From assembly GCA_002269645.1 (NCBI GenBank), contig NIVC01004261.1, positions 1 to 52,747 on the forward strand: a stretch of DNA of 52,747 bases, read 5' to 3'. The notes beneath the pieces were generated by a model, which was not told the origin of the DNA, made no database searches, and worked only from the letters and a program-made list of their open reading frames with translations. The position numbers were made by a program, and so were the translations under genes. The stretch's first letter is position 1; the number at the start of each line of letters is the position of its first letter. Of the stretch, positions 14,422-15,115 are shown piece by piece. The stretch is from Macrostomum lignano. Its lineage: Eukaryota.

Positions 14422-15115
14422 AGTAGAAGGCATGAGGGGGCTTCTGGGACAAAATTTTTCACGTCCTCCATAATCCACCTAAATCCATCCATATTATCCC
14501 TGACAGAATCAGAAAAAAAGGGGGGTCGCACTCGCTCACAAAACGTCCTCCATAATCCCATTAAATCCATCCATATTATCCCCGACAGAATCATGAAAAA
14601 GTGGAGGGGTCGCACTTGCTCCGAAAACTTCGAACATAATCGTATTAAATCCATCCATATTATCCCTGACAGAATCAGTGCATAACAGGTGTCCACTAAC
14701 ACCTGTTATGCTCATTGACACTGACATAATCCACTAACATCCACCCAGAAACAATCAGAAAATAATCTGCATTCTCCCCACATTCAATCCGAAGCGGCGA
14801 AACCAGATCCCAAAGACTTTAAACCCCCTAACCCAGGGTCCTTACCCTTTGAAAAAAAATTAAATTCTTAATAAAAAAATGTTTCCAGTTGTCTCTCCAG
14901 GTTCCTATTATACTCATCCATTGTACAAATCCAAGTACCGATGCAAACTAGAATGCAGCGAATACATGAAAAAATATTGGCCCGACGTTCATATCAATGT
15001 CCCTAATATTAATCTAGCTCTCCAAAGACACTGGTTTCATAAGTATGGAGTAACCTATGTAAAAGATTACGACAGCTACTATAACTTTGCAGAAATCATT
15101 AAGCAATTGCGTTAA
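14422..15115 (+). repeat. Left terminal inverted repeat (outer ~290 bp near-identical to right TIR; diverged homology to ~690 bp)
   Basis: Manual comparison with reverse complement of 29027-29718: first ~90 bp identical, few differences to ~14712, more divergent inward through the 78-aa ORF. Confidence 0.92.
14879..15115 (+). CDS. 78-aa TIR-embedded protein of unknown function (left copy)
   Basis: ATG in AAAAAAATG context; paralogue in the right TIR keeps frame with synonymous and conservative changes. Confidence 0.75.
   Translation: MFPVVSPGSYYTHPLYKSKYRCKLECSEYMKKYWPDVHINVPNINLALQRHWFHKYGVTYVKDYDSYYNFAEIIKQLR

Follow-up and report, generated by a model that had tools for sequence, protein, structure and literature searches.

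According to the available portions of PMC8502044 and PMC8097293, Polintons and the Alpha (Mayetiola-class) adintoviruses carry an rve integrase, a pfam03175 PolB, an adenain protease, an ATPase, a jelly-roll capsid gene and a PLA2-like gene, all of which have counterparts in the element described here. The 6-bp target-site duplication (TSD), the size of 15 kb and the roughly 690-bp terminal inverted repeats (TIRs) of this element also lie within the ranges reported in the accessible text (TSD and TIR sizes, PMC8097293; TIRs, 46 to 1,447 bp), and excerpts of 10.1101/2024.01.15.575659 give 744 bp for the Polinton TIRs of C. elegans. Exchange of modules between lineages is known for Polintons and adintoviruses (PMC8502044), and module-level mosaicism of Polintons and their relatives appears in the parts available of PMC8502044, PMC11296320, 10.64898/2026.10.13.758929 and 10.1101/2023.08.22.554363. 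In the accessible text of PMC8502044 and PMC8097293, this mosaicism lies at the level of modules or domains, and no gradient between arms from the tip to the inside is described. A racket-like single-stranded intermediate, derived from sequence analysis, is the standing Polinton model in the section available of PMC4196379. Unlike the Polintons of these texts, the family studied here has a selected coding gene within its TIR and a variable inner TIR border. Among the titles and abstract openings surveyed, a scope with most subscription papers outside it, no report was found of a tip-to-inside gradient, a selected TIR gene or RNase T2 in Polintons.

The inverted terminal repeats of adenovirus and PRD1 are short and non-coding. 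Both have protein-primed linear genomes whose inverted ends restore their mutual identity by panhandle repair, which is the likeness to the present case (PMC11886824, in part). The evidence there is experimental, whereas the signal here comes from variation among naturally occurring integrated copies and extends into genes; the same excerpts describe the panhandle models for adenovirus and PRD1 as 'homology-restoring' and direct evidence as lacking. Variable gene-bearing TIRs and exchangeable end modules are also seen in the TIR genes of poxviruses and entomopoxviruses and in the end modules of PLVs (available text of PMC11296320). That text concerns mobile helicases invading TIRs, unlike the partial matching of alleles between arms found here.

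Structure and class of the insertion

The window, the whole 52,747-nucleotide stretch of Macrostomum lignano DNA that was analysed, contains a Polinton/adintovirus-type insertion of 15,297 bp (14422-29718) with the ends AGTAG...CTACT and a 6-bp TSD, TCCTTG, matching on both sides. Its features are listed below.

14416..14421, + strand: left target-site duplication, TCCTTG
14422..14709, + strand: outer matched zone of the left TIR, 284/289 columns identical to the right arm
14461-14678: 84-bp unit, 2.6 copies, in the outer zone of the left TIR
14710..14878, + strand: inner non-coding zone of the left TIR, 142/172 columns identical to the right arm
14879..15115, + strand: left TIR ORF, 78 aa, block type B1
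15099..15749, - strand: parvovirus-type PLA2-like gene (Pfam PF08398, E 1e-13)
15780..16787, + strand: rve integrase (Pfam PF00665, E 9e-10)
17464..21005, + strand: protein-primed PolB region in three ORFs, 17464-18348, 18763-20349 and 20346-21005 (PF03175, E 3e-11)
21298..21696, + strand: adenain-type protease (PF00770, E 1.6e-4, over the cut-off)
23368..24168, - strand: A32-type packaging ATPase (PF04665, E 2.9e-6)
26235..27317, + strand: probable double jelly-roll major capsid protein (PF21738, E 6.9e-5, under the Pfam cut-off)
27339..28201, + strand: pair of ORFs next to the capsid gene, here labelled mCP1 and mCP2, candidate minor capsid genes only
28202..29026, no strand: spacer
29027..29263, - strand: right TIR ORF, 78 aa, block type A2
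29264..29718, - strand: non-coding part of the right TIR
29461-29679: 84-bp unit, 2.6 copies, in the right TIR
29719..29724, + strand: right target-site duplication, TCCTTG

From its tip to the stop codon each arm is about 690 bp long, and it contains the repeated 84-bp unit, an A/T-rich leader and the ORF. The leader, which closes the inner zone of the left TIR, also occurs at most other genes of the element, and the left TIR ORF and the PLA2-like ORF, which converge, overlap at their ends. In the PolB region, Pfam matches (PF03175, PF02945) were confined to the middle ORF. mCP1 and mCP2, the candidates for a minor capsid (penton) gene, gave no informative Pfam match; they mark one of two deep capsid-side lineages. 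In the spacer, the 413 bp beside the ORF stop recur after the ORF at both integrase and capsid ends elsewhere in the family.

The characters of a Polinton/Maverick were found: TIRs, a 6-bp TSD, an rve integrase, a protein-primed PolB, a protease, a packaging ATPase and the double jelly-roll capsid, though the Pfam match of the last is below the cut-off. The pfam03175-class PolB and the PLA2-like gene of Alpha adintoviruses were present as well; on the fragments searched, Pfam reported neither an N-terminal OTU domain on PolB nor a pX-like C-terminus on PLA2. By the definition in the available text of PMC8502044, the element agrees with an Alpha adintovirus-type Polinton, and its class is in itself ordinary.

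Several further observations concern the element and its surroundings. An endonuclease VII-like stretch (PF02945, E 1.5e-4) precedes the polymerase domain within 18763-20349. Seven copies of a 21-bp unit lie between the ATPase start and the following ORF (24208-24355), and short units are duplicated in the right-end spacer (28400-28790), where the same insertion on contigs C1527 and C2078 is about 150 bp longer. Overall, the insertion on C1527 (3797-26342) is 22.5 kb long, about 7.2 kb longer than the window copy. A host frame of 304 aa (13121-14035, - strand) stops about 390 bp from the left tip. On the other side are a DnaJ-like host exon (32554-33282, - strand) with an HPD motif, and several exon-like frames of a larger host gene amid many tandem repeats (36424-44135, - strand).

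Divergence between the two arms

The preliminary description had reported inward-facing 78-aa ORFs at 14879..15115 (+) and 29027..29263 (-) that share about 58/78 residues, together with outer TIR parts nearly identical over about 290 bp. Both ORFs were present, and 57 of 80 aligned columns were identical, near the earlier figure; the alignment places a gap of two codons in the left copy, close to its N-terminus, and a gap of one codon in the right copy, around residue 60. The near-identity of the outer zone was likewise recovered (284/289 columns over 14422-14709). Further inward, identity decreased to 142/172 over 14710-14878 and to 190/243 over the ORF, and it was at background level directly beyond the stop codons. 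The proposed purifying selection agreed with a dN/dS of 0.37 between the left and right copies (codon bootstrap 0.17-0.79; Fisher p 0.004).

This insertion recurs with identical flanks and the same pair of alleles on three other contigs, C1527 (at both ends), C2926 (at the left end) and C2078 (at the right end), and these copies differ by 0-2 substitutions from tip to stop. Over the 175 bp upstream and the ORF, the arms of the window element differ by 60 substitutions. Both states of 58 of these are found in other elements and 2 are private, indicating that the divergence of the arms is older than this insertion. By within-element ORF divergence the window element comes second, and a distance this large is seen in 6% of between-element pairs. 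It is near the divergent extreme, in the tail of a pattern that runs through the whole family.

Left and right copies in the family

Similarity searches of the same genome with four different alleles yielded 597-625 candidate arms per search (about 600 overall), of which the best 150 per search were scored. The 147 arms examined, a sample biased toward good matches, included 135 with an intact frame of 76-81 codons. For the TIR ORF, piN/piS was 0.41 (0.25-0.63; 100 alleles) versus 0.17-0.25 in five core genes, so that selection marks the ORF as a genuine gene, yet one under weaker constraint than the core genes. Its alleles are mosaics of two dimorphic blocks, at about codons 12-18 (types A and B) and about codons 47-67 (types 1 and 2), and the window copies differ in both (left B1, right A2). 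Two deep capsid-side lineages, with about 81% protein identity in the major capsid protein (MCP), draw on one TIR pool within the genome.

From 55 inward-facing pairs, 19 were dropped (10 without a detectable tip, 7 with mismatched TSDs and 2 duplicates), leaving 36 independent elements, 34 with perfect TSDs and 2 with one mismatch. A fold-back-like pair on C716, with identical flanks on both sides, was left out. Two different ends were present in 28/36 elements; integrase or PLA2 gave the orientation of 13 of them, and the other 15 were oriented solely by the position opposite the capsid end. In these 28 elements, the ORF distance was 0.126 among left arms, 0.130 among right arms and 0.129 between left and right arms, and the left and right ORFs were undifferentiated (Fst 0.013; swap-permutation p 0.15). 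Each of the four block combinations was found at left and at right ends. Within-element ORF divergence ranged from 0 to 0.21, and the two ORFs were identical in 4/28 elements.

Partners of unpaired arms were probed in 16 cases, giving 5 TSD-matched ends, 8 cases without a TIR end and 1 tip with a mismatched TSD. In all five TSD-matched elements the second ORF was absent or truncated, in a set enriched for such cases because the probes started from arms without a listed partner. Two ORF copies per element are not required. These data are best explained by a large and recently active Polinton family in which the TIR ORF is part of a terminal module (tip, 84-bp repeats, leader and ORF) usable at either end.

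Polarity of divergence and linkage

Expressed as a fraction of between-element divergence, within-element divergence in the 28 elements was 0.26, 0.14 and 0.30 over the outermost 120 bp. It was 0.19, 0.25 and 0.40 over the 175 bp upstream of the ATG, and 0.46 and 0.36 over the 5' half of the ORF (permutation p 0.0002 each). In the 3' half of the ORF it rose to 0.81 and 0.88 (p 0.06 and 0.14). The gradient is not strictly monotonic (first 45 bp, 0.26, versus next 40 bp, 0.14), and some elements show arm differences close to the tip. Tips vary across the family and mostly match within an element; positions +46-85 were identical in 22/28 elements, with 3 expected. The inner TIR border ranges across the family from the ATG to >1 kb beyond the stop codon. 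Tract ends were not taken from the automatic caller, which changes in repeat number made unreliable. Assembly polishing might sharpen the identity of arms that are already similar.

Linkage inside the 234-nt ORF decayed from an r2 of 0.59 (<20 nt) to 0.025 (>120 nt) in 36 arms (p 0.0005). Within and between mCP1 and mCP2, r2 was about 0.7 in 44 independent capsid ends; this high linkage reflects the two deep lineages. In the same capsid ends, linkage with mCP2 was 0.37 for the 3' half of the ORF and 0.02 for the 5' half. Type-2 C-blocks occurred with the second capsid lineage in 11/16 ends and type-1 C-blocks with the first lineage in 24/28. The right end of the window element, where an A2 ORF adjoins first-lineage capsid genes, is an exception.

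Double-ended and variant elements

The same end was present twice in 8/36 elements, the capsid end in 7 and the integrase end in 1. These double-ended elements, on C975 (122373-133902), C276, C869 (288051-310705), C1330, C2140, C1584, C827 and C633, are TSD-flanked, 3.7-22.7 kb long and look like integrated copy-back defective genomes. In the 8.5-kb element on C1584, the repeat extends over 1,752 bp at 99.8% identity, and in four others identity was >=99.6% across the whole 1.4-1.5 kb fetched beyond the ORF. An element on C875 has an identical premature stop in both arms.

Two independent left ends, L149 (C2059) and L157 (C2709), break 34 bp into the TIR ORF and then share a different module, made up of a repeat-rich frame and an ORF beginning MSDLSVTP. 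This suggests a recurrent alternative left end.

The TIR ORF protein

No candidate of similar length was found for the left copy in a set of 5.8 billion proteins, and no scoring candidate was found for the right copy among the longer proteins of that set. Nor was a match found in phage records, in viral contigs or in the genomes of prokaryotes. Four profile matches among 1.84 billion representatives were tandem-repeat proteins in which weak stretches had been summed and were not accepted as relatives; a single metagenome match was a chance 7-residue word inside an unrelated 330-codon frame.

A likeness to RNase T2 recurred in several searches. Residues 26-64 of the right copy aligned with profile positions 66-101 of PF00445 (E 0.0027), at 18.3 bits and so below the Pfam cut-off of 26, and 8/36 alleles matched the profile at E<=0.1. 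The three PDB sequence matches obtained were all of the T2 family (E 0.014-0.033), and in the Atlas both copies had RNase T2 as their highest-ranking family (0.90 and 0.89), at low recognition scores. All of these signals go back to one small set of Trp, Tyr and His words and are not independent. A profile search of PDB found no chain. The structure model, which is poor (pLDDT 59), has three predicted helices (21-35, 46-58 and 66-77); in fold searches with it, Foldseek matched nothing at E<=0.001, the highest VIA Z was 4.9 and no T2 protein was listed, results that carry no weight at such a pLDDT. The model is consistent with a small three-helix protein. The PF00445 profile has about 190 positions versus the 78 aa here.

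RNase T2 enzymes have two catalytic motifs, CAS I and CAS II. In the TIR ORF the first is absent and the second is shifted, with its His in type-2 alleles only. Descent from the helical middle of an RNase T2 is possible but less likely than not. With the first motif missing, a working nuclease is much less likely again, and the protein is probably not one. Recent capture of a host RNase T2 was considered and rejected, since 5 of 7 host exon matches were compared and no protein or DNA similarity beyond chance was seen.

A single insertion of the family (C2606, C3540 and C4945; L034-L036 and L162-L164) sits some 2 kb away from an RNase T2 exon of the host. It holds the allele nearest to the right copy of the window, and no similarity between exon and ORF was found. 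The closeness of the two is probably a coincidence.

The inward-facing position beside a repeat-bearing TIR gives almost an even chance that the product is an early accessory protein, predicted to be expressed from the TIR and to act in trans, so that one copy would be enough. A somewhat unlikely alternative to such a host-directed factor is a cis-preferring helper of end binding or replication whose RNase T2 likeness arose by chance. The fixed position of the ORF beside the origin-bearing tip, the small size and Lys- and Tyr-rich composition of the protein, the lack of a T2 protein among the listed fold matches and of similarity to host T2 exons would all suit such a helper. However, the ORF may be missing from one end, both copies carry a stop in one element, and RNase T2 is the top Atlas family for both alleles. 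Read coverage was alike at the TIR tip, the ORF and the integrase in contigs of three runs guessed to be RNA and one unlabelled run.

Mechanism and alternative explanations

Lineages of the family recombine, and the arms bear the traces of end-to-end copying whose extent declines from the tip. The reading that we consider probable joins the two: recombination between lineages produces mismatched arms, and copying from the tip inward, by panhandle repair, re-matches them over a variable distance. At least two deep lineages exist in the family and recombine, and arms of different ancestry can thereby come together in one element, as with B1 on the left and A2 on the right of the window element. 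In the pattern observed, one arm is then overwritten from the other, tip first and with variable reach: about 290 bp in the window element, partway or all the way through the ORF in many others, and in a few >1 kb of unique genes. Most probably this would be due to a displaced single strand that folds into a panhandle during protein-primed replication, one end serving as the template on which the other is remade before integration. The interior of the ORF may also be reshuffled by repeated partial tracts. The comparisons cover integrated copies, with no replication intermediate among the data, and from these copies we infer the panhandle.

The preliminary description had offered two explanations. 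Its first, homogenised tips and an older duplicated gene under purifying selection, holds for the tips and the selection and fails for the left/right paralogue pair (Fst 0.013, p 0.15). Its second, a recombinant of two virus lineages, is right in that the element mixes two lineages, but this is no one-off, mismatched arms being common in the family. The two are steps of one process and not competitors. Distinct left and right paralogues with separate roles, descended from an old duplication and homogenised at the tips alone, would account for the dN/dS of 0.37 between the copies and for the two deep allele types in each block. Against them stand the lack of differentiation, with both types at both ends, the identical ORFs in 4/28 elements and the missing second copy in some elements; this explanation is largely refuted and very improbable. 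It is scarcely credible that the copies were identical at insertion and decayed later, or, as the preliminary description had considered, that two element copies were misjoined in assembly. The split polymerase region of the window copy and the mismatched TSDs of some other pairs could be read in this way. Only 2/60 differences are private, however, and a misjoin is unlikely because the same insertion with the same two alleles and flanks recurs on three other contigs and its TSD is intact.

Chromosomal gene conversion after insertion is the main rival to replicative copying. Ectopic donors would diversify the inner TIR and conversion between arms would match the tips; about 600 candidate arms are possible donors, and the mismatched TSDs in 7/45 two-tip pairs would fit ectopic exchange as well as misjoins. 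Conversion gives no reason for polarity from the tip, however, and in 12 comparisons, of low power, same-insertion copies on different contigs showed 0-2 substitutions and no sign of changing in concert. The double-ended elements have perfect TSDs, so end copying most simply occurred before integration. We therefore consider conversion quite unlikely and prefer lineage recombination followed by copying from the tip.

Implications

A bolder combination, which we hold to be unlikely, is that the copies record a panhandle intermediate with the TIR as a polar recombination zone, and that the gene is a fragment of RNase T2, captured and catalytically reduced, with two dimorphic blocks that balancing selection maintains and that are reshuffled in this zone. 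If this were true, one element may hold two variants of a host-facing protein.

The feature noted at this locus is real. A pair of paralogues does not explain it, and what deserves further attention is the polar pattern across the family. Divergence between TIRs is unusable for dating these insertions: the inner arms differ by 21% here, and nearly all of the differences predate the insertion. A polymorphic, gene-bearing TIR present in hundreds of copies leaves a measurable footprint in the form of tract lengths, polarity and double-ended products.
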